Of a DNA stretch of 53,274 bases, positions 29,709-47,982 are shown piece after piece. The notes beneath the pieces are model-generated. The model was not told where the DNA came from and did no database searches. It worked only from the letters and a program-made list of their open reading frames with translations. Both the position numbers and the translations under genes were made by a program. Every line of letters starts with the position of its first letter. The stretch's first letter is position 1. The DNA comes from Selenomonadaceae bacterium (GTDB lineage: Bacteria; Bacillota; Negativicutes; Selenomonadales; Selenomonadaceae): positions 1-53,274 of the forward strand of contig JAFQZB010000316.1 of assembly GCA_017406175.1 (NCBI GenBank). The letters run 5' to 3'.

Positions 29709-30797
29709 TCAAGAAGCCTCTTGAGCAGTAAGCAGGGCGGCAACCTTCAAATCCGAACGGCGATTTAAATCAATGAACTCCCCTTTAGTCGTCTGCACGA
29801 CGGGAAGAGACGTAATCCGCGAGTCGTCGAGGTAAACAATCTTAGCGCGTTGCCCGTCGCTCAAGCCGACCCAAGAGCCGTTAATCGCCTGCAAAAGTTT
29901 CTTCATGAAGACAACTACAAAATGCGTATCGAGTTTGCCCGCCAAGGCGTCGCCGTACAAAACTTTGATGATGTCGAAGGGCGAATTCCTCTTTGCGTAG
30001 GAACGATGAGTCGCCATCGCGTCATAAATGTCGAGTATCGCGATAATCTTTCCGAAGTCGCTAATCTTGTTGCCCTTGAGCTTGCTAGGATAGCCCGACC
30101 CGTCGCAACGTTCATGATGATGCAAGACGCCGAGCAAAACATTTTTTAAGCTCCTAATCGACGACTCCATTAGCAAGGCATAACCGAAGACGACATGTTT
30201 ACGAACCTCGGCAAGTTCCTCGTCGTCCAGCTTGTCCGTCTTGTTGAGAATGCCCTTTGAAATTTTCATCTTGCCAATCTCGCTCAGAAGACCCGCGATA
30301 ACCAGTTCGCCGACCTGCGTAGCCCGATAGTCGAGCCAATGAGCCATAATCCCCGCTAAGATTCCGACGTTCAATGCGTGGTGGATTATATAATCGCCGT
30401 CGCGTTTCATGTTGTGAATTTGAGTTATCGCCTTAATGCCGTCGTCGCAAAGCTCGGAGATATTATCCGCACGAACGATTTCTACTAGCCCCGCCCGGTC
30501 TAGCTTGCCAGTATTGGCGAAGCCGTAATAAAGATTTTGCGTTAGGGCGAAGCATTTCTTATAGCAGGTAATATAATCATCGTCTAGCAGGTGTTCTTGA
30601 CTTGCCTTGGTGGGTTTGTAGTCTTCGGGTGTCACGTCGATATAGACGGAGAAAATATTTTTACCGCGCAAGCTGTCTAGCATTTCTGACGTAAGTTTGA
30701 CGTTGGCTTTTATAAGCGTCTTGCCGTCGAAGTCTTTCACGGCTCGTCCGACTGTCATGCCCACTCGCAGTTCTGTCACGTCGTAGGATCTGAGCAT
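29709..30797 (-). CDS. HD-GYP domain cyclic-di-GMP phosphodiesterase-like protein
   Basis: HHALNV...HHHERCDGSGYP motif. The ATG at 30797 follows a purine-rich SD (AGGGGGAAACGGA). The ORF-track start at 30908 is unlikely. Confidence 0.85.
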   Translation of the reverse strand: MLRSYDVTELRVGMTVGRAVKDFDGKTLIKANVKLTSEMLDSLRGKNIFSVYIDVTPEDYKPTKASQEHLLDDDYITCYKKCFALTQNLYYGFANTGKLDRAGLVEIVRADNISELCDDGIKAITQIHNMKRDGDYIIHHALNVGILAGIMAHWLDYRATQVGELVIAGLLSEIGKMKISKGILNKTDKLDDEELAEVRKHVVFGYALLMESSIRSLKNVLLGVLHHHERCDGSGYPSKLKGNKISDFGKIIAILDIYDAMATHRSYAKRNSPFDIIKVLYGDALAGKLDTHFVVVFMKKLLQAINGSWVGLSDGQRAKIVYLDDSRITSLPVVQTTKGEFIDLNRRSDLKVAALLTAQEAS

Positions 30798-30907
30798 TCC
30801 GTTTCCCCCTTGCTTGAAGTTAAAACTGGTATTTGCCGCGCCTGGAAAAATTCCTGCGTTGTTTACAAATTTCATTGATGGTTTATAATCGTGGCGAGGT
30901 GATTCCA

Positions 30908-31774
30908 TTGACTGATAAAAAAATTCCGCGCAGTAACGTTTCGGCTTATGTTAAGAAGTATCTTCAGCTTTGTATCGGGGCAGTGATTGCGGCACTGGGT
31001 CTTGAACTCTTCCTGATTCCAAACGAAGTCATTGATGGCGGCGTTGTCGGCTTGTCGATTATGGCGCAGTATCTGACGGGCTTGCCGCTAGGAACCTTCC
31101 TTATCCTGTTCAATATCCCGTTCCTGTGGCTGGCTTATAAGCAGATTGGCAAAGATTTCGTCATCGCGACGATTGTGGCGATAATTTTCCTTAGCATATG
31201 GTCTGAGGTCGTCGGCGAATATCCCAAGGTGACGAATGACCCGTTCTTAGCGGCGATATTCGGCGGGATAATTGACGGCTTAGGCGTCGGCTTGATTATG
31301 CGGGCGGGCGGCTCCCTAGACGGTACGGAGATTGTAGCAATCATCGTAGACAAGAAAACAATCTGGTCGGTCGGCGAAGTCGTCATGTTTATCAACCTGT
31401 TTATCCTGAGTGGCGCGGGCTTGCTCTTCGGTTGGGATAAGGCAATGTATTCGCTGTTTGCTTACTTCGTTATTTCCAGAATGATTGACGTTGTGATTAA
31501 GGGTCTCGACGAGATGTACGCGGTGATGATTGTCTCGAATATGCCCTATGAATTGACTGATGAGCTCAACGCCAAACTCGGACGCGGCGTCACGCTCCTG
31601 CACGGCGAAGGCGGCTACACCCACCAGAGCAAAGAAATTCTCTACTGCGTCGTCACACGCCTTGAGGTCGACAAGCTAAAGAAGATTGTTCTTGAGAAGG
31701 ACGAGCACGCCTTTGTTACGATTTATCCCGTCAACGATATTGTCGGCGGTCGCTTCAAGAAGTCTGGACACTAA
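30908..31774 (+). CDS. YitT-family membrane protein (DUF2179 C-terminal domain)
   Basis: IGAVIAALGLELFLIPNEVIDGGVVGLSI is typical of YitT. TTG at 30908 follows SD GAGGTGA. The start is uncertain. Confidence 0.75.
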   Translation: MTDKKIPRSNVSAYVKKYLQLCIGAVIAALGLELFLIPNEVIDGGVVGLSIMAQYLTGLPLGTFLILFNIPFLWLAYKQIGKDFVIATIVAIIFLSIWSEVVGEYPKVTNDPFLAAIFGGIIDGLGVGLIMRAGGSLDGTEIVAIIVDKKTIWSVGEVVMFINLFILSGAGLLFGWDKAMYSLFAYFVISRMIDVVIKGLDEMYAVMIVSNMPYELTDELNAKLGRGVTLLHGEGGYTHQSKEILYCVVTRLEVDKLKKIVLEKDEHAFVTIYPVNDIVGGRFKKSGH

Positions 31775-31825: not shown

Positions 31826-32200
31826 TTAAGCCGCTTTGATGAGGTCGAGAACCTGCCCATGAGTTAAGCTCTTGCCGTCTTTGCTGTAGTAGTTGTCGCT
31901 CTCGCGGAAGCCCGTTCCACCCCAACCAATGCTTATGTTCGATTTGATTCCGAGGCTGTCCTTTAGAATGCGTTCGGCAATCCGTGAGCCTACATTATTC
32001 CATGCTGCGGTTCCGACTTGACCGGCTACGGGGATTGCGCCGCCGATTTTCCGGATTCCGTTTGAAATATCTCCAACAACGCCCATCTTCTTTTCCATCG
32101 CGCTGTAGATTTCGTTGAATTCGTCCACCGTGCCGCCGCTGATGTTGTCGAGTTGCTCCATGTTGAGGATTTCTTCGTTGATGATGTTGATGTTTTTCAT
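31826..32200 (-). CDS. Double-glycine-leader secreted protein, paralogue 1 (124 aa precursor)
   Basis: Leader MKNINIINEEILNMEQLDNISGG fits the L(-12), L(-7), I(-4), GG(-2,-1) pattern. SD AAGGAG upstream. The C-terminal motif NYYSKDGKSLTHGQ is shared with 45697 and 50418. Confidence 0.7.
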   Translation of the reverse strand: MKNINIINEEILNMEQLDNISGGTVDEFNEIYSAMEKKMGVVGDISNGIRKIGGAIPVAGQVGTAAWNNVGSRIAERILKDSLGIKSNISIGWGGTGFRESDNYYSKDGKSLTHGQVLDLIKAA

Positions 32201-32317: not shown

Positions 32318-34942
32318 TTATTTATCGAGCTTAACGGCTGGCGTCTCCTTAACATTGAAGGTAAAGTCGCCGTCAAAGTCAATCTCGACCGTGTCGCCGT
32401 CCTTGACTTCGCCCGCGATAATCTTCTTGCTTAGCTCCGTCTCGACCGTGCGTGTCAAAAGCCGTTTAAGCGGTCGTGCGCCGTAGTTCGCGTCGAAGCC
32501 CTTATCAGCCAGCGTATCGACCGCGCCTTGCGTCCACGTGAGATTTATATTTGCCTGCTTGCTGAGTCGTTCGCCCAAAGTCTTAAGCAGAATCTCCGCG
32601 ATAGCTTTGACTTGCTCCTTAGCCAACGACTTGAAGACGATAATATCATCAATGCGGTTGAGGAATTCGGGACGGAAGTAATCCTTAAGCAAATTCTTGA
32701 TAATGCTCTCTGCCTCCGCGAATGCCTTGCTTGTGATGAATCCAATTTTTGCCCGCTGAAGGATTTCCTGCGAACCAAGATTGCTCGTCATGATGATAAC
32801 GGTGTTCTTGAAGTTCACGACGCGCCCTTTGCCGTCAGTCAATCTGCCGTCGTCTAGGATTTGCAGTAAGACGTTGAATACGTCGCGATGAGCCTTCTCA
32901 ATCTCGTCAAGCAGAATCACGCTGTAGGGTTTGCGGCGAATCTGTTCTGTTAATTGCCCGCCCTCGTCGTAGCCGACGTAACCAGGAGGCGCACCGATTA
33001 ATCTAGCGACCGTATGCTTTTCCATGTATTCGGACATGTCGACGCGGACAATACTGCGTTCGTCGTCGAAGAGTGCTTCCGCCAATGCCTTAGCTAATTC
33101 CGTTTTGCCGACGCCCGTCGGACCTAAGAAGATGAACGAGCCGATTGGGCGATTGGGGTCTTTGATACCTGCACGGGCGCGGAGGATAGCCTCGCTTACG
33201 GCTTTAACGGCTTCATCTTGCCCGACAACGCGTTCATGCAAAGTATCTTCCAAGTGCAAGAGCTTTTCGCGTTCGCCCGTCAACATTTTGGCAAGGGGGA
33301 TACCCGTCCACCGGCTGACGACGCGGGCAATATCTTCCTCGCCGACTTCCTCTTTTAACATGCGATTATCTTTATCCTGCGCGGCAATGTCTTCTTCCGC
33401 CTGCTTTAGCGTGGTCATCAGTTCGGGCAACTTGCCGTATTTAAGCTCGGACGCCTTCTGCAAGTTGTACGCCCGTTGAGCCTCCTCAATTTCACCGTTC
33501 ACGCTGTCGATTTCCTTCTTAATCGCACGCACACGCAGGATAGCTTCCTTTTCCGCCTCCCACTTGTCGCGAAGAACTTTTTCCTTGTCCTTGAGCTGGG
33601 TTATTTCTTCGGCAATGGCTTTAAGCTTTTCTTGGGACGCCGCGTCTGATTCTTTGTTAAGGGCTTGCTCCTCAATCTCAAGTTGCATAATCTTGCGGCG
33701 GGTCTCGTCGATTGGCGCGGGCAGTGATTCAATTTCCGTGCGGAGTTTAGCCGCCGCCTCGTCGACAAGATCAATCGCCTTATCGGGCAAGAATCGGTCG
33801 CTGATATAACGGTCGGAAAGAGTCGCCGCACTGACTAAAGCCGCGTCCCGAATCCTAACGCCGTGATGAACTTCGTAGCGTTCCTTTATGCCGCGCAGGA
33901 TTGTAATCGTGTCCTCAACGCTCGGTTCGCCGACCATGACGGGTTGAAAGCGGCGTTCAAGGGCGGTGTCCTTCTCCAGATACTTGCGGTACTCGTTAAG
34001 GGTCGTCGCGCCTATGCAACGCAATTCGCCACGCGCCCGCATCGGCTTAAGGATATGGCCCGCGTCCATTGCGCCTTCGGACGTGCCAGCCCCCACGACC
34101 GTATGCACCTCATCGATAAACAGCAGTATTTGCCCGTCGGACTTGGTAATTTCGTTGAGCACGGACTTTAACCGCTCCTCGAATTCGCCGCGGAACTTCG
34201 CGCCCGCAATCAACGCCGCCATGTCCAAAGCGTAAAGCGTTTTGTTCTTGAGCGATTCGGGCACGTCACCCGCGACGATACGTCTTGCAAGCCCCTCAAC
34301 GATAGCCGTTTTGCCGACGCCCGGTTCACCGATGAGCACAGGATTATTTTTCGTCCGCCGACTTAGGATTTCAATCGTCCGCCTAATTTCCTCGTCGCGC
34401 CCGATGACGGGGTCGAGCTCGCCAGCCAACGCCGCTTGCGTCAAATCCCGTCCGAACTTCGCTAAGCTCTGGTAAGTCTCTTCGGGATTGTCGCTCGTGA
34501 CGTTCTGTTTACGATTCTTTTTTATCGCCGCGTCGATTCGGTTCTTGTTCAGGTTAAATTCGCGGGCAATGTCTTGCACTTCCTTTTTGCCGTCGGTGAC
34601 TAGGGCAAGCAGTAAATGTTCCGTGCTGATAAATTCGTCTTTCATAGACGCCGCGTAATCTTTTGCCTTGCCCATGACACGCGCCAAATCCACGCCCATT
34701 GACAGCCGCTCTTGACCTTTGACTTGCGGAATCTTATTCAACTCCGCCTCCAGCCTGACTTTGAGCATTGGCAAATCCGTTTGACATTCCCTAAAGATTG
34801 TCGCCAATAATCCTTCCGGCTCCTTAGCCAACGCCAACATCAAATGCACCGAGCTGAATTCCTGATGATATTTCATTGCCGCGAGCTGTTGCGCCGCTTG
34901 AATTGCCTCTTGCGCTTTGTTCGTATATCTTTCTGCTACCAT
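32318..34942 (-). CDS. clpB: ATP-dependent chaperone/disaggregase ClpB
   Basis: Two AAA+ modules ([18 protein letters not shown]) and a long middle coiled coil. The ATG at 34942 follows SD AAGGAG. Confidence 0.95.
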
Positions 34943-34979
34943 GATTATCACTCCTTAGCGTTTCTTTCTAACGTTGCCA

Positions 34980-35084: not shown

Positions 35085-35993
35085 ATGAACAAAGATGAAT
35101 TGCTTGGCTTGTTGGACGATGCTGACGTTCGGGAAAAGATTTTGGCAATCGTGAATCAGCAGGCGGACGACGTGCAGGAACCCATTCCGGAGGCAATCAA
35201 AGTTGAATCACAGCGGGCGGATAGACTTTTAGCCGAGGTCGACCCGTGGAAGCAAAAGTTTGACGACGAACGCCAGCGGGCAAAAATTCTTCAAGCTGAA
35301 CTTAAAGCTGAGGGCAAGCGGGCGGATAAACTTCAACGCGAGGTCGACGCTTGGAAGGAAAAGTTTAACGCCGAACGCAGACGGGCAGATAAGCTCAAAA
35401 TCGACGGCGACGCCTGGATTAAGCAGTACGAACATCAGCAACGGCGCGCAAATGAACTTCAAGGCAAGCTCGAAACGTGGATTAAAAAGTTTAACGACGA
35501 ACAGGAGAAGTCGGAAAAACTTCAAAGGGATTTCGACGACGCGGAAGGAAAACTTTCTAGGCTGGAGGACTTCACTCGCGGCTTTGAAATCTATCAGAAG
35601 TATCAAGGCGTCGGCTCTCATGCTCAACAGCTCTTGTCGGCGGGAGTCTTCACGCGCAATGACTTTACGTCGTTCATCTGCGGCGGGGCGCAAGTCAATT
35701 CCCTTGAGACGATTTGGGATGTGTGGCGTGAATGCGTCATGGGCGGCAAGAATCAGGACGCTAAGATTTTGTGCGAAGTTTTCATGTATTGCTTGGGGCT
35801 GGTCAACGCCTCTAAGGTGCAGGCGAGCTATTCAATCTTGCCCGTGAAGGTCGGCGACCCTTTCGACTCGGATATTCACGTTGAAGCCCCCGGCAGTCGT
35901 GCGCAAGGCAAAATCTCCGAAGTCTATCTGCCCGGCTACCGCAACAACTATAATCAACGTATCATCAAGAAAAGTATCGTTAAGGTTAGCTAA
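35085..35993 (+). CDS. Coiled-coil repeat protein with a GrpE-like C-terminal domain
   Basis: SD GAGGAGG upstream. Residues 44-163 are five to six 21-22-aa repeats (RADKLQREVDAWKEKFNAERR type). The C-terminus VGDPFDSDIHVEAPG...ISEVYLPGYRNNYNQRIIKKSIVKVS aligns with the GrpE beta-domain signature. Confidence 0.7.
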   Translation: MNKDELLGLLDDADVREKILAIVNQQADDVQEPIPEAIKVESQRADRLLAEVDPWKQKFDDERQRAKILQAELKAEGKRADKLQREVDAWKEKFNAERRRADKLKIDGDAWIKQYEHQQRRANELQGKLETWIKKFNDEQEKSEKLQRDFDDAEGKLSRLEDFTRGFEIYQKYQGVGSHAQQLLSAGVFTRNDFTSFICGGAQVNSLETIWDVWRECVMGGKNQDAKILCEVFMYCLGLVNASKVQASYSILPVKVGDPFDSDIHVEAPGSRAQGKISEVYLPGYRNNYNQRIIKKSIVKVS

Positions 35994-36001
35994 GGAGTTG
36001 T

Positions 36002-36778
36002 ATGTCAATGGAGACGAAAAGCAAGAATGAAATCCAATCGTTATTTGAAAAATACCACGTGATTATAAAGACGGACGATATGCAAAATGAGGATATGATT
36101 GATGTTATTGAGCACTTGGAAACGGACGCCGTAGCATATGAACGCCCTGATGCTTACATTCTGCGCGGAAAATTTATTTATGCGATAGAACACTTCTGCG
36201 TTTCTCAATACGCAAAGAAAAAGAATTCCGATTTATCAAAAGAGGCTGAAGGAGCCAAAATTTGTCGAGATAAAATGAAGACAGACAGAGACTTTAACCT
36301 CTTTCCGTCTCGTTCAAATCTGGAACGTAGCTTTCGGGAAAATTTAGATAAACACTCTAAAAGCTTTTCTACTTATAAAAAAAATATCATGGCGATTGAT
36401 AAAGCTAAAAATCACGATTACCGCCTAATCATATTAATCGAAGACATTACTGAAAGCTGGCTTGTGAAAAGTCGCGAAGTCAATATAATTAATCCCTTAA
36501 ATTTATCAACGATGTTCGACATCTTATCGGAATATCAAAATTCTGTTTGGGGTATTGCTTGCTTGTATGGCAATGAGCGAGATAAATTTTTGACAGGATA
36601 CACCGTGGAAGAATTGGACGAACGAAAGAAGAATGGTAAATTACTCTGTGCGGAAAATTATGTTCCCTTTGAAACGGAACGCAAGGTTCATGTCTCTAAG
36701 AATAATTCAAAAGACGATAGAAACTCTGTGACAATAAAATTGTATGACTGCTTTTGTAACAGGGATGGTATTAAATAA
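36002..36778 (+). CDS. Hypothetical protein (258 aa), AT-rich orphan
   Basis: SD AAGGAG lies 5 nt upstream. Composition is visibly more AT-rich than both neighbours. No family recognised by eye. Confidence 0.6.
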   Translation: MSMETKSKNEIQSLFEKYHVIIKTDDMQNEDMIDVIEHLETDAVAYERPDAYILRGKFIYAIEHFCVSQYAKKKNSDLSKEAEGAKICRDKMKTDRDFNLFPSRSNLERSFRENLDKHSKSFSTYKKNIMAIDKAKNHDYRLIILIEDITESWLVKSREVNIINPLNLSTMFDILSEYQNSVWGIACLYGNERDKFLTGYTVEELDERKKNGKLLCAENYVPFETERKVHVSKNNSKDDRNSVTIKLYDCFCNRDGIK

Positions 36779-36790
36779 GGAGATGAGATT

Positions 36791-39700
36791 ATGCCATTCA
36801 ATCGCCCGACGATGAAAAAAGCTTTGAGCGTGCCGAAGGTGCAAATCCCCGCGCTCGTCAAGCAAACGACCATTGCAAATATCGCGCCCGCTACCGCCAA
36901 AGTCAAAGCCGACATCCTCAACCTTGCCGAGAACATCAAGCCCGTCGCGGACAAAACGTTTGTCATGATGAAAAATAAAAAGGTTTGGTTCGACAGGAAC
37001 AACGCCGCCATTTATCCCAAGTTTGAGCATTTCACTCTGCCCGAATTCAAAACCAAAGGTCAGCCGTCGAAAAATTATAGCGTCGACTTTGAAGGTTTTC
37101 ACTTCGTAGGAATGACTCGCCGCGAAGGTCTCAACAGCTTTACTCAACTTGAACGCAATCCCTATCTACAGGACGACGGCAACTTTAGGAACTTTCCGAA
37201 CTCCCAAAATAGATTCGCCGGTGTTTTGACGGGCGACCTTAAACCAGAGGGCGGCGTTTGGTGCGTTCATTCAGATGGCTCTATTGATGGTTGGAACGAC
37301 GACGAAAACTTTTTTACATTAGTGCCGATTAGTCACTTAAAAGGCAAGGACAGCAGACGCATTGACTTTTTCGAGGCGGTGTGGCTGTGGTTGAAGAATG
37401 GACTTATTCCCAAAGGCATGAACGCCGAAGACGAGCGCGAATTCCTCCGAATCATTAACGAGTATAAAAATTTCTTCTCTTATCTTGACTTCAACGATAA
37501 CGAACTCCGCCTTGCCGAAAACATCAGCGGAGATTTGTCTGCTCTCGTTGCGGAACTTTCAAGCATCGTCAATAAAACTTTCGTGATGATGAAGAACAAG
37601 CAAGTTTGGTTCGACAGGAACAACGCTGCACTTTATCCCAAGTTCGAGCATTTCACTCTGCCCGAATTCCAAGCTAAAGGTCAGCTGTCGAAAAATTACA
37701 GCGTCGACTTCGAGGGCTTTCATTTTGTGGGAATGATGCGCCGCGAAGGTTTGAACAGTTTTACTTGCCTTGAACGCAATCCCTATTTGCAGGACGATAA
37801 AACTTTTAGAAACTTTCCAATGAAACACAATACATCTGTAATGACAAGCGATATTCGCTCTGATAGCAGAGTATATGTTATTTATCCATGGTATGGTTTA
37901 TCTCATTGGGGAGATACTAGTACAACTGCATTGGTTCCGATTAGTCGTTTGAAGGGCATAAACAGCGGGCGCGTTGGTTTTGTCGAGGCGGTCTGTCTTT
38001 GGCTGAAGAACGGACTTGTTCCCGAAGGCTTGAGCACGGAGCTTGAAAAGAAATATACGGACTTCATGAGCCGCCCTAATCTACAAGCGACGATAAATGA
38101 GTTCTTCAACGAAATGACGCGACTAAAACTTTCTGCGGCGGCGATAACCTTTGACGGCGACCGCTTTAAAAGGGACGTGCTCGGCGGAAAGTTCACGGCG
38201 AAAGTTTTTGATTACGATTTCGACATAAAAGGGACGCTCGAAGGTATCATGGACGGTTCGCGGCAGTATACAGGCTCGGTTGCGTCGCTCAAGCAAGAAC
38301 TTTTGAACTGCGACTTCAAACGCGCAAACATTGAGCCCTATGACGAACGACTGCTAATTGATGTTAATCGCGGACATTGGGAGCTATTCGAGGACTCGGC
38401 GAAGGATTCAATTCAAGTACAGTTGCCCGCCGCTGAAATGCTCGTGGCTCGTCCGCCTCAACTCGACGTGCGACTTAATGGCATTTGCGCAATCGACTTC
38501 GGCACCAAAAATACAATCGTAGTTTGCCGCGACGGTGAATCACGTATGCTGAGGATTGGCAAGGGCGACTATTCCAAAGCCCCGACTGTCGACGACTTCC
38601 AAAATCCGACCGTGATTGAACTGCGCGACCTGCAAAACTTCTTGGCGGCGTATCGTCAGCGGACAGGGCGACCCTTCACGGAATGGAATCAAGTTACGGT
38701 CTCTCACAAGGCGGCGGAGGCAATCTTCAAAGAAAACGTCGGCTCCTCGGTTTATAATTCGGTCTTCAGCGAGCTAAAGCAGTGGGCTAAGGACGAGCAA
38801 AGCTATCCCGTGCTAAAGGACTTGCAAGGGGCGATTCAGGAGATTAAACCCTACCTTGAAACGGATTCGATTGACGCGGGCGACTTCGACCCCATTGAGC
38901 TTTACGCCTATTACCTCGGACTTTATATCAACAACATGCACCGGCAGATTTATTTGGATTATATCTTGTCGTATCCGGTCAATTACAGGAAGGACGTTCG
39001 CGAGCACATTCGCCAGAGCTTTGAACGCGGGCTAAGGAAATCACTGCCGCCCGCCCTGCTTGCCGACGAAGAGCTTATGAAACGTTTCCGCGTGTATTTG
39101 GGAGCCAGCGAGCCAGCCGCCTATGCAATTAGTGCTTTGGAGGGTTTCAAGCTTGAGCCTAAGAACACCGACGATAAGATTGCTTACGGGGTGTTCGACT
39201 TCGGGGGCGGCACCACGGATTTTGACTTTGGGATTGAGTACGTGCCGGAGAATCACCGCCGCAACTTTATCATTGAGCAATTTGGGTTCAATGGCGATGC
39301 TCTGCTTGGCGGCGAAAATATTTTGGAGTTGCTAGCCTATGAAGTCTACAAAGACAACTTGCAGGAGATGCGCAGTAAAAAAATTCCGTTCGCGTTGCCG
39401 GCGGGCTGTGAAGTCTTCGCGGGAGCCGAGACGCTTGTAAGTCGCACGCGGGATTCAGCGGCGCACATGAACAATCGGATACTCGCCGAGGCATTGCGCC
39501 CGATTTGGGAGAACACCGACCGCACTAAGCTGACCGAAGACGCCCTGCCCTTGAAACTGTTTGCTAAGGAATCAGTGCCCGTCACGCTGAAAATTGACGT
39601 TGACAAGTTAGACGGGCTGATTGAGCGGCGGATACGTGAAGGCGTCGTGAATTTCTTCCAGTCGCTAAAAGTTGCGTTCGCGGGCAAGGACATTTCCCCG

Positions 39701-40495
39701 ATTCACATTTTCCTTGCGGGCAATTCGTGCCGTTCGCCGGTAGTCAGGAAGATTTTCGACGAATTCATCAGCCGCGAGGACGGAGAATTTATTCTGCACA
39801 TGCCGCTTGGTATGGACTTTGAAGCCGAACTGCTTGCCCTTGCCGATAAACTTTCCGCCGCTGAAAATATCATTCCCGCCGCGAAAGAAATTGCGACGTT
39901 GGCTAGGGAGATTGGAGCCACAGAACTTGCCGAGCTTGCGGAGGATAGCATTTCCAAAGCCGAACGAAACGAACGGAGCGACGACTTGGCGAACGCAATC
40001 AAAGCTTTCTTTGCCGATAAGAACAGTCAATCGAACGTCATGGAACTAGACAGGCAACGAACCGGCAAAACGGGCGTGGCGTTCGGGCTGATTCGCTGTC
40101 GACGCGGCGGCAAGGACATTCAGATTATTAATCGCAACGTCGACGCAAACGATGAGATGATTTTTCCGTACTTCCTCGGCGACGCGGGCAACGACGGCAA
40201 TACATTCACGGTAAAGATTGGGCGCGAAGTCGGCTACGGCGTTTGGACTTACTTTACGTTCGCTGACGAGCCGGAGTTTGAACTTTACTACACTACGGAG
40301 CCGCGAGCCTTGAAGGGCGACCTAGCCGCCGATAAGGTTAAGATGGTTCACTGCTTGCTTGACGACACCAGCGACGATGAGGATTTTGGCGTTTACGTCC
40401 GAAAAGTCACGCCGAATCAGATTGAATACGCCGTCGGGCGAGCGGAAGACTTCAAAGATAATTTCAGCGGAAAAATTTATCGGCAGGCGTTGTAA
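36791..40495 (+). CDS. 1234-aa protein: tandem duplicated unknown N-terminal domains plus an Hsp70/actin-fold (ASKHA) ATPase domain
   Basis: SD AAGGAG upstream. ASKHA motifs occur in canonical order: ICAIDFGTKNT, YGVFDFGGGTTDFDFG, GDALLGGENI, IHIFLAGNSCRSPVV, TGKTGVAFGL. No Hsp70 substrate-binding domain is recognisable. Confidence 0.75.
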   Translation: MPFNRPTMKKALSVPKVQIPALVKQTTIANIAPATAKVKADILNLAENIKPVADKTFVMMKNKKVWFDRNNAAIYPKFEHFTLPEFKTKGQPSKNYSVDFEGFHFVGMTRREGLNSFTQLERNPYLQDDGNFRNFPNSQNRFAGVLTGDLKPEGGVWCVHSDGSIDGWNDDENFFTLVPISHLKGKDSRRIDFFEAVWLWLKNGLIPKGMNAEDEREFLRIINEYKNFFSYLDFNDNELRLAENISGDLSALVAELSSIVNKTFVMMKNKQVWFDRNNAALYPKFEHFTLPEFQAKGQLSKNYSVDFEGFHFVGMMRREGLNSFTCLERNPYLQDDKTFRNFPMKHNTSVMTSDIRSDSRVYVIYPWYGLSHWGDTSTTALVPISRLKGINSGRVGFVEAVCLWLKNGLVPEGLSTELEKKYTDFMSRPNLQATINEFFNEMTRLKLSAAAITFDGDRFKRDVLGGKFTAKVFDYDFDIKGTLEGIMDGSRQYTGSVASLKQELLNCDFKRANIEPYDERLLIDVNRGHWELFEDSAKDSIQVQLPAAEMLVARPPQLDVRLNGICAIDFGTKNTIVVCRDGESRMLRIGKGDYSKAPTVDDFQNPTVIELRDLQNFLAAYRQRTGRPFTEWNQVTVSHKAAEAIFKENVGSSVYNSVFSELKQWAKDEQSYPVLKDLQGAIQEIKPYLETDSIDAGDFDPIELYAYYLGLYINNMHRQIYLDYILSYPVNYRKDVREHIRQSFERGLRKSLPPALLADEELMKRFRVYLGASEPAAYAISALEGFKLEPKNTDDKIAYGVFDFGGGTTDFDFGIEYVPENHRRNFIIEQFGFNGDALLGGENILELLAYEVYKDNLQEMRSKKIPFALPAGCEVFAGAETLVSRTRDSAAHMNNRILAEALRPIWENTDRTKLTEDALPLKLFAKESVPVTLKIDVDKLDGLIERRIREGVVNFFQSLKVAFAGKDISPIHIFLAGNSCRSPVVRKIFDEFISREDGEFILHMPLGMDFEAELLALADKLSAAENIIPAAKEIATLAREIGATELAELAEDSISKAERNERSDDLANAIKAFFADKNSQSNVMELDRQRTGKTGVAFGLIRCRRGGKDIQIINRNVDANDEMIFPYFLGDAGNDGNTFTVKIGREVGYGVWTYFTFADEPEFELYYTTEPRALKGDLAADKVKMVHCLLDDTSDDEDFGVYVRKVTPNQIEYAVGRAEDFKDNFSGKIYRQAL
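36917..38080 (+). repeat. Intragenic tandem duplication of ~590 bp (aa 43-239 versus 240-430)
   Basis: 36953-37195 and 37574-37810 encode near-identical sequence (KTFVMMKNK.VWFDRNNAA.YPKFEHFTLPEF...LERNPYLQDD). DNA differences are mainly at third codon positions. Confidence 0.9.
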
Positions 40496-41108: not shown

Positions 41109-42065
41109 GTGAGCTTTTTGGAAAGAGTTGCAGTAAGTTTATTGGGCAAGAGCGTCGTTGCGATGGAAAATTTTTCGGCGGAGGAGATTCGGCTCGTCTT
41201 GGACACGGCGTATAAGATGAAGCAAATCATTCGACGCGGCGGCGACAAGAAGTTATCGAACCTTCGCGGCAAGTCGATAGTCAATCTGTTCTATGAGCCG
41301 TCGACTAGGACGCGGACATCATTTGAGCTGGCGGGCAAGTATCTTGGCGCGGACGTGGTTAGCATTAACAGCGGCACAAGTTCAATCGTCAAGGGTGAGA
41401 GCCTCCGCGACACGTTACGGACGATTGAGGCAATGGGCGTTGATGCAATCGTCATGCGGCACAAGTCAGAGGGGGCGGCGGACTTCGCGACGCGTGCAGT
41501 TAAGCCCGTGATAATCAATGCTGGCGACGGAGCACACGCGCACCCCTCGCAAGCACTGCTGGACTTATTCACGATTGAACAGCGCAAAGGACGCCTAGCC
41601 GGTCTCAAGGTCGCAATCGTCGGAGATATTCTGCACAGCCGCGTTGCCCGTTCGGACGTCTACGCAATGACTAAGGTCGGGATTGAAGTTCACCTTGCCG
41701 GACCGAAGACGCTACTGCCGAGGTTCTTTGACTTTGACGGCGTGACGGTTCATGAAAGCCTTGACGAGGCGATAACGGGAGCCGACGTGATTAACGTCCT
41801 GCGAATTCAACTGGAACGACAGCAAGCGGGGCTTTTCCCGTCAACCAGAGAATATGCGCGGGTCTTCGGCATAAACGACGCACGTTTGAGCCTAGCAAAG
41901 GACGATGTGTTAATCCTGCACCCTGGTCCACAGAACAAAGGCTTAGAGATTTCGTCGGAGGTCACTTACTGCGAACAGTCAGCGATTCAAGAGCAAGTTC
42001 AAAACGGCGTGGCGATTCGTATGGCGTTGCTCGACTTGACATTGAACGGAGGCAGCGCGAAATGA
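41109..42065 (+). CDS. pyrB: Aspartate carbamoyltransferase catalytic subunit
   Basis: FYEPSTRTRTSFE, HPSQALLD and HPGP motifs. The start (GTG at 41109 or TTG at 41118) is uncertain. Confidence 0.93.
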   Translation: MSFLERVAVSLLGKSVVAMENFSAEEIRLVLDTAYKMKQIIRRGGDKKLSNLRGKSIVNLFYEPSTRTRTSFELAGKYLGADVVSINSGTSSIVKGESLRDTLRTIEAMGVDAIVMRHKSEGAADFATRAVKPVIINAGDGAHAHPSQALLDLFTIEQRKGRLAGLKVAIVGDILHSRVARSDVYAMTKVGIEVHLAGPKTLLPRFFDFDGVTVHESLDEAITGADVINVLRIQLERQQAGLFPSTREYARVFGINDARLSLAKDDVLILHPGPQNKGLEISSEVTYCEQSAIQEQVQNGVAIRMALLDLTLNGGSAK

Positions 42066-42526
42066 AATTTATCCTAACCGAAAGAGGTAACGAAGCTATC
42101 AGCCTCGCGTTCGTGAAAGACTTCGCCATTGAGCGCGTCGTTTATCAGGACAACACAACCGGCTCTCACGTGATTGCGGAGCTTGATGACGATGACGACG
42201 TCACCATAAAAATTTTTGAATCGGAAGACGCGGACGGGAATTTTTCTGCGGCTAAAGCTTACATTGCGAAGCTCATCGAGAAGTTGAACATCGACGGGGC
42301 AAAATTTCTTCTTAGCGCGAGCGGCAATGAAGCTATCAATCTTATGTTCGTCAACACTTTCAACATCGGTCAGGTCGTTTATAATGACGCGGAAAAATTT
42401 TGCGTGGCGGCGGTTCTTTCCGATGAATCCCAAAAAACTATTTCAAAAGAATTCGACACTGCTACCGAGGCGGAAAAATTTTTGGCAGAACTCGTCGAAC
42501 AATTGAACGGAGGCGAGGCATTATGA
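42062..42526 (+). CDS. Hypothetical acidic protein made of two ~75-aa tandem repeats, embedded in the pyr operon
   Basis: ATGA overlaps at both ends. KFILTERGNEAISLAFVKDF... and KFLLSASGNEAINLMFVNTF... are clearly homologous halves. Confidence 0.6.
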   Translation: MKFILTERGNEAISLAFVKDFAIERVVYQDNTTGSHVIAELDDDDDVTIKIFESEDADGNFSAAKAYIAKLIEKLNIDGAKFLLSASGNEAINLMFVNTFNIGQVVYNDAEKFCVAAVLSDESQKTISKEFDTATEAEKFLAELVEQLNGGEAL

Positions 42527-46068: not shown

Positions 46069-46164
46069 AACTTTAGCAAAAAATTTTTTCGCGGTCAACG
46101 AAATTTTTTCAGGGCAGGAAATTTGCTTCAAGTACAGAAAAAATCTTCGCGAGGAGGGATTTAT

Positions 46165-47982
46165 ATGGGAAAAATCTTTAGACGAACGCTGACGGCTCTG
46201 CTAATCGTGATTTTCGCATTAAGTGCGGCAATCGTCGGCGCAAAAATCCAAATGTACACGGCGACTGGCGAAGATTACGCTAACGAAGTCGAATCGCAGG
46301 ATATTGCTAAGCTCCGTGCACGCGACAAGGCTATCAAGAAGGCGACAAAACAAGCCGGCGTTTATTTGAAAACCTATTCGCGCTCCGTCAACAGCGAATT
46401 AACCGATGATGAAGTCACTGCGATAACGTCAAACGCTTGGCAACTCGTCGGCGAGCCTAAATACTCAAGTAAGATAGTAAAAGGTTCCGATGAAACGTCG
46501 ATTATCATTTGGACGGCGACTGTTGAGGTTAATGTCGACGATTCAGAGATTCAAAGCTGGATTAAACGCGATGATAAAGATAAATCGACGATAATCACTC
46601 AAACACAAGAGGCGCAGAAGTCTGCAGAAGAAAACGACCGCAAAATTGAAGACTTGAGAGAAAAATACAACCGCGCAACGTCTCAAGCCGAAAAAGATAG
46701 CCTTCGCAAGCAGATGAACGACTCCGACCGCGACTTTTTAGCTAATCAGAAGCTTGAAGAAGGAAATAAGCTTTATTATGCCAAAGATTATTACGGAGCG
46801 ATTAAACTCTACAGAGAAGTTATTAAAATTAAGCCAGATTGGTCTTTTCCGTACAACAATCGCGGCGTTGCTTATAATGATTTAGAACAATACGAGCGAG
46901 CCATTGCTGATTACGATAAAGCTATTCAACTCAATCCGAATTTAGCCGAGGCGTACAACAATCGCGGAGTTGCTTATAATAAATTAGGACAATACGAGCA
47001 AGCCTTCAATGATTACAATCGAGCTATCGAACTCAATCCGAATTATGCATCTGCGCACAACAATCGCGGCAATGCTTATAGCCTTTTAAAACAAAACGAG
47101 CGAGCAATTCAAGATTTTGACAAAGCTATCGAACTCAATCCGAAGTATGCGGAGGCGTACAACAATCGCGGCAATGCTTATAGCCTTTTAAAACAAAACG
47201 AGCGAGCAATTCAAGACTACAATAAAGCAATCGAACTCAATCCGAATTATGCCAATGTGTATTATAACCGCGGTATTGCTTATTCTGATTTAGGACAAAA
47301 AGAGCGGGCAATTCAAGATTATTCCAAAGCTATCGAACTCAATCCGAATTTTGCATCTGCGTACAATAATCGCGGCAATGCTTATTATTATTTAGGACAA
47401 TATGAGAATGCGATAGCTGATTATTCTAAAGCAATAGAACTTAATCCAAATCATACTGGGGCGTACAGACGGCGTGCTCAAGCTTATAAAGAACTTGGAC
47501 AATATGAGCAAGCTATTGAGAATTATACTATGTCTATTAAAATTAAATCAGATGATATCTTCTTATATGAAGGCAGAGGTATAGCCTATTACAAAGTAAA
47601 AAAATATCAGAAAGCTATTGCTGATTTCAATAAAGCTCTCAAACTCAATCCGGAATTTACAGCGATTCGTGCTTCTAGAGGAAATGTTTATTACGAATTA
47701 AAAGATTACAAAAAAGCTATCCAAGATTATGATAAGTACATTGAAAAAAATCAAACGGATTATCGTGTTTATTTTAAACGCGGTATGTCTTATAAAAATT
47801 TAAAGCAATACGAAATGGCTATTCAAGACTTTGAGAAGGTTTTTAAACTTACTCGTTATGAATTTAGTTTTGATAAATCTGAGTTATATTTTAATCGTGG
47901 ATTTTGTTATCAACAACTCGGCGATGAGGCAAAAGCGCAAGCTGACTTCGCGAAAGCAAAAGAACTCGGCTACAAAGGCTGA
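46165..47982 (+). CDS. Membrane-anchored/exported LPP20-like N-domain plus TPR-repeat protein (~13 TPR units)
   Basis: The ATG at 46165 follows SD GGAGGG. Signal/anchor LTALLIVIFALSAAIVGA. Long TPR array with AYNNRG..Y..L.Q.E.AI.DY.KAIELNPN consensus. AT-rich. Confidence 0.8.
   Translation: MGKIFRRTLTALLIVIFALSAAIVGAKIQMYTATGEDYANEVESQDIAKLRARDKAIKKATKQAGVYLKTYSRSVNSELTDDEVTAITSNAWQLVGEPKYSSKIVKGSDETSIIIWTATVEVNVDDSEIQSWIKRDDKDKSTIITQTQEAQKSAEENDRKIEDLREKYNRATSQAEKDSLRKQMNDSDRDFLANQKLEEGNKLYYAKDYYGAIKLYREVIKIKPDWSFPYNNRGVAYNDLEQYERAIADYDKAIQLNPNLAEAYNNRGVAYNKLGQYEQAFNDYNRAIELNPNYASAHNNRGNAYSLLKQNERAIQDFDKAIELNPKYAEAYNNRGNAYSLLKQNERAIQDYNKAIELNPNYANVYYNRGIAYSDLGQKERAIQDYSKAIELNPNFASAYNNRGNAYYYLGQYENAIADYSKAIELNPNHTGAYRRRAQAYKELGQYEQAIENYTMSIKIKSDDIFLYEGRGIAYYKVKKYQKAIADFNKALKLNPEFTAIRASRGNVYYELKDYKKAIQDYDKYIEKNQTDYRVYFKRGMSYKNLKQYEMAIQDFEKVFKLTRYEFSFDKSELYFNRGFCYQQLGDEAKAQADFAKAKELGYKG

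Follow-up and report, generated by a model that had tools for sequence, protein, structure and literature searches.

What can an Hsp70-type ATPase and a private GrpE-like partner be doing together outside the housekeeping chaperone set? Few molecular machines are as well understood as Hsp70 and GrpE, and nearly all that is known of them concerns protein folding. The question is raised by a three-gene cassette in a 53,274-nucleotide contig of a Selenomonadaceae bacterium (JAFQZB010000316.1, assembly GCA_017406175.1), the whole of which we analysed and refer to as the window. A first-pass annotation had described three tightly packed genes on one strand, each preceded by a strong Shine-Dalgarno (SD) site, and the open reading frame (ORF) list and the sequence bear out this layout. 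Gene A (35085..35993, 302 residues), gene B (36002..36778, 258 residues) and gene C (36791..40495, 1234 residues) all lie on the + strand, with gaps of 8 nucleotides between A and B and 12 between B and C, and AGGAGG or AAGGAG stands 5-9 nucleotides 5' of the ATG of each. Gene A encodes a coiled-coil protein whose C-terminal half is GrpE-like; gene B is an accessory gene from an uncharacterised family of ~250-residue proteins and a candidate effector; and gene C encodes two copies of an N-terminal domain, a linker, an Hsp70-type nucleotide-binding domain (NBD) and a domain resembling the β-sandwich of the Hsp70 substrate-binding domain (SBD-β). Direct scans of A, B and C against Pfam, NCBIfam, PADLOC and PHROG gave nothing near curated cut-offs, with only weak coiled-coil, GrpE and DnaK matches. 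We suggest, at close to even confidence, that A and C are a cognate pair of nucleotide-exchange factor (NEF) and Hsp70 forming the conserved core of a rare, mobile and apparently undescribed multi-gene conflict or defence system.

The ATPase identity of C is the firmest part of this reading. The Hsp70 motifs are present where the first-pass annotation had placed them and in the canonical order: phosphate-1, ICAIDFGTKNT, at residues 565-575; phosphate-2, YGVFDFGGGTTDFDFG, at residues 799-814, with GDALLGGENI also present; and the adenosine motif, IHIFLAGNSCRSPVV, at residues 971-985, followed by TGKTGVAFGL at 1091-1100. Across 29 C homologues D569 (in D569-F-G-T-K), E774-P775, D803, G805-G807 and T808-T809 are invariant, and a profile built from these homologues matched the DnaK NBD in the PDB (E=2.9e-7). 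Profile alignment by hhalign with E. coli DnaK covered DnaK residues 169-363 at a probability of 95.6% (E=1.3e-8), pairing E774-P775 with DnaK E171-P172, D803-x-G-G-G-T-T with D194-x-G-G-G-T, T808/T809 with T199, GGE with GGE, and LAGNSCRSP with LVGGQTRMP. D569 meets DnaK D8 only in a sub-threshold HMMER stretch; lobe I aligns structurally only, and the equivalent of DnaK K70 is unplaced. Fold comparison agrees with the profiles: an AlphaFold2 model of C residues 236-1234 (30 sequences, mean predicted local distance difference test score, pLDDT, 74.6) retrieved DnaK/Hsp70 structures in Foldseek at E=4e-17 and probability 1.0, with ~14% identity in the structural alignment. From profiles and model together, C is predicted to be a non-canonical Hsp70-superfamily ATPase with its aligned catalytic motifs intact. 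In a single-sequence scan Pfam HSP70 did not match C at E<=1, and the NCBIfam models for DnaK, HscA and PRK11678 gave 10.6-14.9 bits against cut-offs of 331-822 (DnaK, 14.9 against 648); judged by these scores C is therefore not an orthologue of DnaK, HscA, HscC or YegD, in line with the non-canonical Hsp70 of the first-pass annotation. The predicted NBD spans 38483..40105 on the + strand (residues 565-1105) and holds all three motifs. Just before its last helix, TGKTGVAFGL, the model shows a helical insertion of ~80 residues (39818..40054, + strand; residues 1010-1088, model residues 775-853), a region that is variable and gapped in the C-family consensus.

Beyond the NBD lies a β-rich domain (40118..40492, + strand; residues 1110-1233) with nine strands in the model, SBD-β-like by position and fold. 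When the C model was searched against the PDB, constructs containing both NBD and SBD-β occupied ranks 1-31 with ~690-725 aligned columns, and NBD-only structures began at rank 32 with ~447-475. The same pattern of longer alignments was found in a BFVD fold search, where viral Hsp70 homologues were the only matches. Because the NBD+SBD alignments are ~250 columns longer and rank first, an SBD-β-like β-sandwich probably follows the NBD of C. The first-pass annotation had seen no SBD, which holds for the sequence (hhalign probability against the DnaK SBD, 0.05%) and probably not for the predicted fold. Its remark that the cassette lacks an EEVD tail and a J-domain stands: C ends ~125 residues past the NBD with ...KIYRQAL, with no α-helical lid and no EEVD tail, and the Pfam and NCBIfam scans found no DnaJ match for A, B or C.

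Gene A appears to supply the exchange factor. Its predicted GrpE-like module (35445..35990, + strand) comprises a long helix (residues 121-174), a helical bundle (178-243) and a β-domain (249-302) bearing the motif G-D-P-F-D-x-D-x-H ... G-Y-R-N ... K-K-S-I-V-K-V, and the C-terminal ~140 residues are conserved in the A family that we gathered from neighbours of C homologues. Pfam GrpE alone was matched by more than one member of this family: eight of the 32 hit it, the best at E=8e-4, and every such match fell at the C-terminal end of the GrpE model. The 32-sequence A profile aligned by hhalign with E. coli GrpE at P=0.0027, placing residues 106-150 of a 150-residue A fragment, DxFDxDxH...GYRN...IRKSIV, on GrpE 147-193. 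An AlphaFold2 model of A residues 120-302 (pLDDT 80.7) has the GrpE layout, its long helix followed by a helical bundle and then by a small C-terminal β-domain. In Foldseek, PDB ranks 1-4 and 6 for this model went to GrpEL1 and to the GrpE proteins of T. thermophilus and M. tuberculosis, with alignments of essentially full length over 157-186 columns (ranks 1-4, E=7e-3 to 0.07, probability 0.90-0.63; template-modelling score, TM, about 0.3, with a different helix orientation). The A-family profile found no GrpE match among PDB sequences. Three independent weak signals, from Pfam, hhalign and the fold search, agree on GrpE and on no other family, and we consider it likely that A has a GrpE-like fold and is probably an NEF, in agreement with the GrpE likeness first read from its C-terminus and with the linkage of A to C across genomes described below. 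The N-terminal part of A is a coiled coil of ~160 residues with only weak coiled-coil-type matches in Pfam, NCBIfam and PADLOC. As first described it is built from repeats (35199..35513, + strand; direct-repeat family D2), with 84-nucleotide units at 35199, 35304 and 35430, the copies being 77% and 63% identical to the reference unit.

A and C travel together. We scanned one genome per species across a collection of 185,579 species, which gave 349 C-matching stretches, and fetched 80 loci for neighbourhood counts. A hidden Markov model (HMM) of the A C-terminal domain identified an A-like gene in 44 of the 80, directly upstream of the C-like gene, or of a tandem set of C-like genes, wherever both genes were called. 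The 36 loci without an A match consist of 21 from oral Selenomonas/Centipeda with a shorter C (~889 residues), nine in which the C match starts at a contig end and upstream sequence is thus missing, and six others. When loci are compared two by two, the identity of their A proteins correlates with that of the NBD-SBD part of their C proteins (Spearman 0.77, 465 pairs). A and C are a conserved pair, and A both co-occurs and co-diverges with C. The first-pass annotation had taken A-B-C as the unit, and this did not survive the survey: B is absent from the closest relatives, and outside the window it stood between A and C only in the contig group L082-L084 among the loci fetched.

The C family is rare. 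A large protein database held only 45 close homologues, all unannotated and all from Selenomonadaceae-type metagenome-assembled genomes. Matches in the species scan came from Negativicutes (Selenomonas, Veillonella, Megasphaera, Phascolarctobacterium) and from Bacilli and Clostridia (Ureibacillus, Evansella, Peribacillus, Natroniella, Heliorestis, Ruminococcus, Lachnospiraceae), the loci closest to the window being those of Selenomonadaceae RGIG6124 (L009) and Quinella sp. (L007), so that the window can be assigned to a Selenomonadaceae of the rumen; no C relatives were found in GenBank phages or IMG/VR. A minimal A-C form occurs in the window, L009, L012, L016, L017, L062, L073, L075 and others. 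The order clpB-A-C-lepB is kept among relatives over a range of C identities of 66-97%, a sign that the minimal pair is maintained and not decaying. Two variant arrangements of C were also seen. The oral Selenomonas/Centipeda loci (L026-L045, L056) carry a shorter C (~885-910 residues), similar to window C from residue ~404 onward, and no A-like gene; these genes are preceded by a conserved ~235-residue protein with an N-terminal hydrophobic segment (cluster cl5) and a ~230-290-residue protein (cl10), and their chromosomal surroundings are conserved as well. Tandem sets of two or three C paralogues with differing N-terminal domains, sometimes each with its own A-like gene, occur in L003 (1870-13081), L099, L100 and L085.

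The N-terminal region of C behaves differently from its ATPase. It contains two copies of a family-specific β-rich domain, copy 1 at 36932..37444 (+ strand; residues 48-218; repeat families D1 and D3) and copy 2 at 37556..38056 (+ strand; residues 256-422; pLDDT about 80-93). The tandem duplication of ~205 residues noticed in the first reading is evident in two blocks, 36953-37214 against 37574-37835 (82% nucleotide identity) and 37317-37428 against 37929-38040 (77%). At the protein level the first ~90 aligned residues are ~90% identical, a central stretch is divergent, and the likeness then resumes; the core KTFVMMKNKxVWFDRNNAA...NPYL is likewise conserved in the family around a variable central segment. 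No relative of this domain was detectable in Pfam or the PDB, a BFVD fold search gave no clue, and a weak RuvB_N match to the first copy was taken as chance.

Comparison with the closest relatives shows how this region came to differ. The window and L009 are ~97% identical across clpB, the intergenic region and all of A, and the identity is lost at the A stop codon; identity to L009 and L007 then jumps from 0.4-0.6 to 0.97-1.0 at about nucleotide 38150 (~C residue 454). Between these breakpoints the window has B and two N-domain copies (~2.16 kb); B is missing from L009 and L007, and their single N-domain is only 30-56% identical to that of the window. The first window copy is 85% identical to the first N-domain of L096, though the ATPase parts are only 68% identical, and among close C pairs the NBDs are 97-98% identical and the N-terminal regions only 53-77%. 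The sharp breaks, the likeness to the L096 domain and the much greater divergence of the N-terminal region than of the NBD lead us to conclude that the N-terminal module of C, together with B, has been exchanged by recombination as a cassette between otherwise 97-100% identical loci. Relative to L009 and L007 the swapped cassette occupies 35994..38149 (+ strand), that is B plus C residues 1 to ~453, delimited by the identity breaks and accompanied by a trough in GC content. The locus is a clean natural example of cassette exchange inside a gene.

Gene B had been called an AT-rich orphan. It is indeed AT-rich, lying in a trough of 39% GC in the window against ~50% on both flanks, but it is not an orphan: we found five close homologues and 158 representative clusters at E<=1e-3, with proteins of ~250 residues. 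No Pfam, PDB, PADLOC or PHROG match was found for B, and profiles of 6 and 50 sequences searched against the PDB and Pfam also gave nothing. The family has invariant residues P49-D50, E63 (within E63-H64-F65), H118, Y125 and E147-D148; K74 is invariant only among the six closest members. P49-D50 followed 13 residues on by E63-H64-F65 gives a PD...E arrangement whose spacing hints that B may be a PD-(D/E)xK-like nuclease; no profile match accompanies it. Relatives of B were found in none of the 80 C-family loci and are missing from relatives 95-97% identical to the window; the A-B-C order recurs in one further contig group (L082-L084) at 55-69% identity. Elsewhere the slot between A and C holds an unrelated 289-residue gene in L016, which looked PIN-like by eye only, had no Pfam match and was not used as such, or a 128-residue gene in L096. 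A 276-residue gene between A and C in L065 was rejected as a slot gene, since it is a piece of a C-like N-domain broken off by a frameshift. Relatives of B also follow an ankyrin-repeat protein, a NUMOD-type protein and an AAA ATPase, and one shares an island with WYL, DUF5906, an HTH_17-family gene and a resolvase; a metagenome scan for B yielded three short contigs only. Because its members sit beside diverse large proteins and in a resolvase/WYL island, the B family fits a portable effector or accessory module.

The A-C cassette is usually part of a larger operon, whose extra genes (HerA-like, cl3, cl6, dynamin) are all absent from the window. We called ORFs in all loci and clustered them; names such as cl2 and cl3 are cluster numbers. 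The frequent operon consists of A, one to three C paralogues, cl2, cl3, a small protein, cl6 and an optional dynamin-family GTPase. The cl2 protein is a ~1070-residue HerA/FtsK-like ATPase that matches Pfam DUF87 above the cut-off and the PADLOC models mad8 (2e-21) and HerA (1.5e-17); cl3 (~300 residues) has a Gly/Ser/Ala-rich hydrophobic N-terminus, cl6 is ~210 residues long, the small protein (about 100-180 residues) has weak coiled-coil-type matches only, and the GTPase matches Pfam Dynamin_N (1.3e-14) and PADLOC LeoBC (3e-11). Between the N-terminal domain and the ATPase of cl2 lies a low-complexity linker of ~110-160 residues rich in Ser, Thr, Asn and Gly, seen in L001 (12946-16152, Selenomonadaceae) and L077 (12667-15777, Lachnospiraceae); it could be an Hsp70 client segment.

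The contexts of these operons show that the A-C system is horizontally mobile. On an Acinetobacter piscicola plasmid typed as MOBP and mobilizable (L085), the order is WYL, cl2, a 78-residue gene, a cl3-like gene, a 310-residue gene, an A-like gene (HMM E=8.6e-15), C, C, HEPN and dynamin, followed by an integrase, HipA toxins and insertion sequence (IS) elements. A Helicobacter plasmid (L086) carries an A-like gene and C with an HNH endonuclease and SMI1/KNR4 and an FtsK/SpoIIIE protein. The full operon of L096-L098 is preceded, ~2 kb upstream, by a NikA-like gene and a relaxase, and in L096 and L098 DUF932 follows it closely. A WYL-HTH gene is directly upstream in Veillonella (L059), and proteins of the same cluster are upstream in Phascolarctobacterium (L044) and in L050. 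In L005 (6419-16406) A-C is followed, tightly packed on one strand, by an AHH nuclease with a Cys-rich N-terminus, Imm11, unannotated 755- and 144-residue proteins, a Phage_base_V spike-like protein, unannotated 415- and 223-residue proteins, and a canonical-type HSP70, a gene content that may indicate a toxin-delivery or contractile-injection-like locus; the toxin N-terminus looked PAAR-like by eye only, a guess that we did not use. Among the 94 nearest non-redundant neighbours, strong PADLOC matches were to a type IIG restriction-modification enzyme, DruE, JetD, NERD/UvrD, Nhi, AbiO and SngC. Two further neighbourhoods deserve mention in their own right. In L010 (18-9846) a 2013-residue DEAD/Helicase_C/MZB protein (PADLOC DruE, E=7e-109) and a 1238-residue protein stand immediately upstream of a C-like gene without an A partner, and the neighbourhood looks Druantia type III-like. 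In L067 (3403-8729, Ureibacillus xyleni) an Hsp70-vWA fusion (Pfam HSP70 3e-102, VWA 9e-21) and an unannotated 1084-residue protein lie just upstream of A-C.

How does this system compare with those already described? Its nearest relative in mechanism is DnaK-GrpE (PDB 1DKG, 4ANI, 8GB3), with which the predicted pair shares an actin-fold NBD with three motifs, an alignment to DnaK 169-363 through the E-P-x-A, D-x-G-G-G-T and G-G-E elements, and a β-domain after the NBD; A stands beside C and has the long helix, bundle and β-domain with PxDxxxH ... GY ... R/K-x-x-x-V. Unlike DnaK-GrpE, A and C fail the curated Pfam GrpE and HSP70 thresholds; C has a family-specific N-terminal extension of 330-560 residues (duplicated in the window) and the ~80-residue NBD insertion; the cassette lacks the α-helical lid, EEVD and a J-protein; A carries a repeat-built coiled coil; and the C family is rare and found in mobile contexts and in operons with HerA-like and nuclease genes.

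Hsp70 modules have also been described, from computational work, in two predicted defence or conflict systems. The GAP1-N2 DO-GTPase systems of Firmicutes and Actinobacteria are predicted conflict systems that recruit an Hsp70 paralogue with GrpE, sometimes with a second Hsp70 lacking the peptide-binding domain and with further variable components, and they are defined by DO-GTPases, GAP1, and FNIII-repeat or DnaJ-/TPR-fused proteins (Kaur, Burroughs, Iyer & Aravind, 2020; PMC7159879). A-C operons differ in that they may have only an optional dynamin-family GTPase, and the HerA-like ATPase and the C N-domain fall outside the GAP1-N2 description. We rejected membership, having seen no DO-GTPase, GAP1, FNIII or DnaJ in the annotated operons examined. 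In type III CoCoNuT (McrBC-type) systems, CnuD/CnuCD provide a divergent Hsp70-like NBD/SBD in a predicted defence operon rich in coiled coils, in some cases with FtsK/HerA-type ATPases, glycine-zipper proteins and HEPN nucleases added, and with Druantia type III as a neighbour (Bell et al., 2024; PMC11090510). The likeness to A-C operons lies in a divergent Hsp70-like unit with coiled coils, a HerA/FtsK-type ATPase and, in L085, HEPN. CoCoNuTs are, however, defined by an McrB-type GTPase and an McrC (DUF2357) homologue, and CnuD has degenerate nucleotide motifs and no described GrpE-like partner (Bell et al., 2024; PMC11090510), whereas the nucleotide motifs of C are invariant and C has the GrpE-like partner A; this assignment was also rejected, as no McrB-type GTPase or McrC/DUF2357 appeared in the annotated operons examined. 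The HerA defence complexes (SIR2-HerA, DUF4297-HerA; PADLOC HerA, mad8) resemble A-C operons in their HerA/FtsK-family ATPase, the kind of protein usually encoded downstream of A-C. They differ in that cl2 is a ~1070-residue protein whose N-terminal domain is unique and which has a low-complexity linker, A-C operons contain no SIR2 or DUF4297 effector, and the window has no HerA-like gene. We found no published description of an A-C operon in the searchable open-access literature, and no curated family or PADLOC model covers it, in keeping with the original suggestion that the system is undescribed.

Module swapping, carriage on mobile elements, WYL regulators and nearby nuclease genes lend circumstantial support to a role in conflict, and suggest how the parts could work. 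The N-domain or N-domains of C would be an exchangeable recognition or docking module, replacing the J-protein as targeting device; the NBD-SBD of C would act as an ATP-driven clamp or switch; and A, as a dimer, would reset that switch through ADP release. The output would be the activation or release of an effector, for which B is the candidate in the window and, in the full system, the HerA/FtsK-like ATPase, the Gly-rich hydrophobic protein, the dynamin-like GTPase or the HEPN, AHH and HNH nucleases. The role would then most likely be to defend against phages or other mobile elements, or to let mobile elements compete with one another; housekeeping proteostasis is less likely. In a bolder form, which we offer as a speculation still somewhat short of balanced odds, A-C is the engine of an unrecognised class of prokaryotic immune or conflict systems, in which an Hsp70 clamp with swappable N-domains and a private GrpE senses an invader protein and licenses exchangeable effectors, drawn from the B family, HEPN, AHH or HNH nucleases, a HerA-like ATPase and membrane or dynamin-like proteins; the Hsp70 cycle would there be a switch analogous to STAND or MoxR-vWA switches.

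Several observations weigh against a conflict system built on an NEF/Hsp70 pair. Each GrpE score for A is weak singly (Foldseek E=7e-3, TM about 0.3, Pfam below cut-off), and A reaches 11.9-14.4 bits where the Pfam PF01025 gathering score is 25.8. A profile of the C-terminal β-domain of C gives no sequence signal against the DnaK SBD or the PDB. In PADLOC-DB 2.0, B, C and a second C homologue had no match and A had coiled-coil noise only. The nuclease label for B comes from the PD...E motif and from nothing else, and L009 and L007 keep A-C with neither B nor an evident effector. Across loci most immediate neighbours are ordinary metabolic genes, and the toxin and immunity pairs (AHH/Imm11, HNH/SMI1) are more typical of inter-bacterial antagonism than of phage defence.

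The most serious competitor, though on balance unlikely, is that A-C is a dedicated client-specific chaperone or assembly system without an immune role, its client being the HerA-like ATPase or parts of a toxin-delivery or contractile apparatus. An Hsp70 NBD, an SBD-like domain and an NEF are after all the classical chaperone triad minus the J-protein; the HerA-like partner has a low-complexity linker of a type conserved in L001 and L077; in L005 the operon that starts with the pair also encodes an AHH toxin, Imm11, a Phage_base_V spike-like protein and another HSP70, of canonical type; and an Hsp70-vWA fusion lies upstream in Ureibacillus. A fixed client would not, however, need N-domain cassette replacement between 97%-identical strains, the minimal A-C form persists without the putative clients, and the cassette showed no J-domain; carriage on plasmids and relaxase elements together with WYL regulators also points to an accessory rather than an assembly function. 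That same carriage is what would be expected if the genes belonged to the transfer, maintenance or entry-exclusion machinery of mobile elements, with the FtsK/HerA-like protein as DNA translocase or coupling protein, A-C remodelling a relaxosome or membrane complex, and the A-C pair of the window a chromosomal remnant. The relaxase and NikA-like gene upstream and DUF932 downstream, the mobilizable MOBP plasmid, the Helicobacter plasmid with its FtsK/SpoIIIE protein, and weak TrwB/FtsK matches of the HerA-like protein would all suit such machinery. We nevertheless think it improbable: many full operons lie among chromosomal housekeeping genes, away from any relaxase or integrase, the clpB-A-C-lepB synteny at C identities of 66-97% argues for kept function and not for decay, and HEPN, AHH and HNH effectors and WYL regulators are atypical parts of transfer machinery.

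Two further explanations carry very little weight with us. Cooperation between DnaK and ClpB is established, and clpB lies directly upstream of A and divergent from it in the window, L009 and L020, so that A-C might work with ClpB as a bi-chaperone disaggregase, the competing idea named in the first-pass annotation. Yet this clpB neighbour (cluster 55) occurs in just two of the 80 related loci, L009 and L020, besides the window, the others having unrelated neighbours; C has no lid and there is no J-protein; and the C family is rare and mobile where ClpB is universal, so that a partnership of this kind is barely credible. Equally remote is the idea that C is an actin-like cytomotive or segregation ATPase of the ParM, MreB or FtsA type with A as a coiled-coil adaptor. 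The fold shared by actin, Hsp70 and sugar kinases does leave the motifs alone ambiguous, and plasmid carriage would suit a segregation protein, but all top structural and profile matches of C are to Hsp70 and none to ParM, MreB or FtsA, the alignment reaches the SBD region, and the partner A models as GrpE.

If A and C are indeed the core of a conflict system, the Hsp70 cycle would have been reused as a switch in biological conflict, as hinted so far only by the DO-GTPase/GAP1-N2 systems and CoCoNuT CnuD. This mobile family would have kept the ATPase and exchange-factor chemistry, put a covalently attached, exchangeable N-terminal module in place of J-protein targeting and dropped the lid, while travelling with HerA-like, dynamin-like and nuclease genes. 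The idea is directly testable, as compact operons are found in Acinetobacter, Peribacillus and Veillonella, which are tractable hosts or related to such hosts. The analysis also newly defines protein families that are currently unannotated, namely the C N-domain, B, cl3 and cl6, the last two usually encoded after the HerA-like gene.

In the window the A-C pair stands between clpB (32318-34951, - strand), divergent and directly upstream of A, and lepB-pyrB, with lepB, pyrB and pyrC downstream of C. A promoter and terminator scan of the locus did no better than on shuffled sequence. Four other ORFs in the window attracted attention. A 619-residue TPR-repeat protein (46123-47982, + strand) is encoded where the GC content of the window is lowest (0.35-0.42, in a trough at 46-48 kb), and a relative of it (cluster 62) is found just upstream of C-like genes in L047 and L048. 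Between pyrB and pyrC a 154-residue ORF (42062-42526, + strand) without a Pfam match consists of two duplicated halves of ~70 residues sharing ...SGNEAI.L.FV..F.I..VVY.D..., and is missing from the otherwise syntenic L009. A 124-residue ORF (31826-32200, - strand) with no Pfam match starts with MKNINIINEEILNMEQLDNISGG, which resembles the double-glycine (GG) leader of bacteriocin and peptide-pheromone precursors, and continues in a Gly-rich body. Finally, a 399-residue ORF (29709-30908, - strand) bears, as read from its sequence, an HD-GYP-type signature (HHHERCDGSGYP) and is probably a cyclic-di-GMP phosphodiesterase-like protein.

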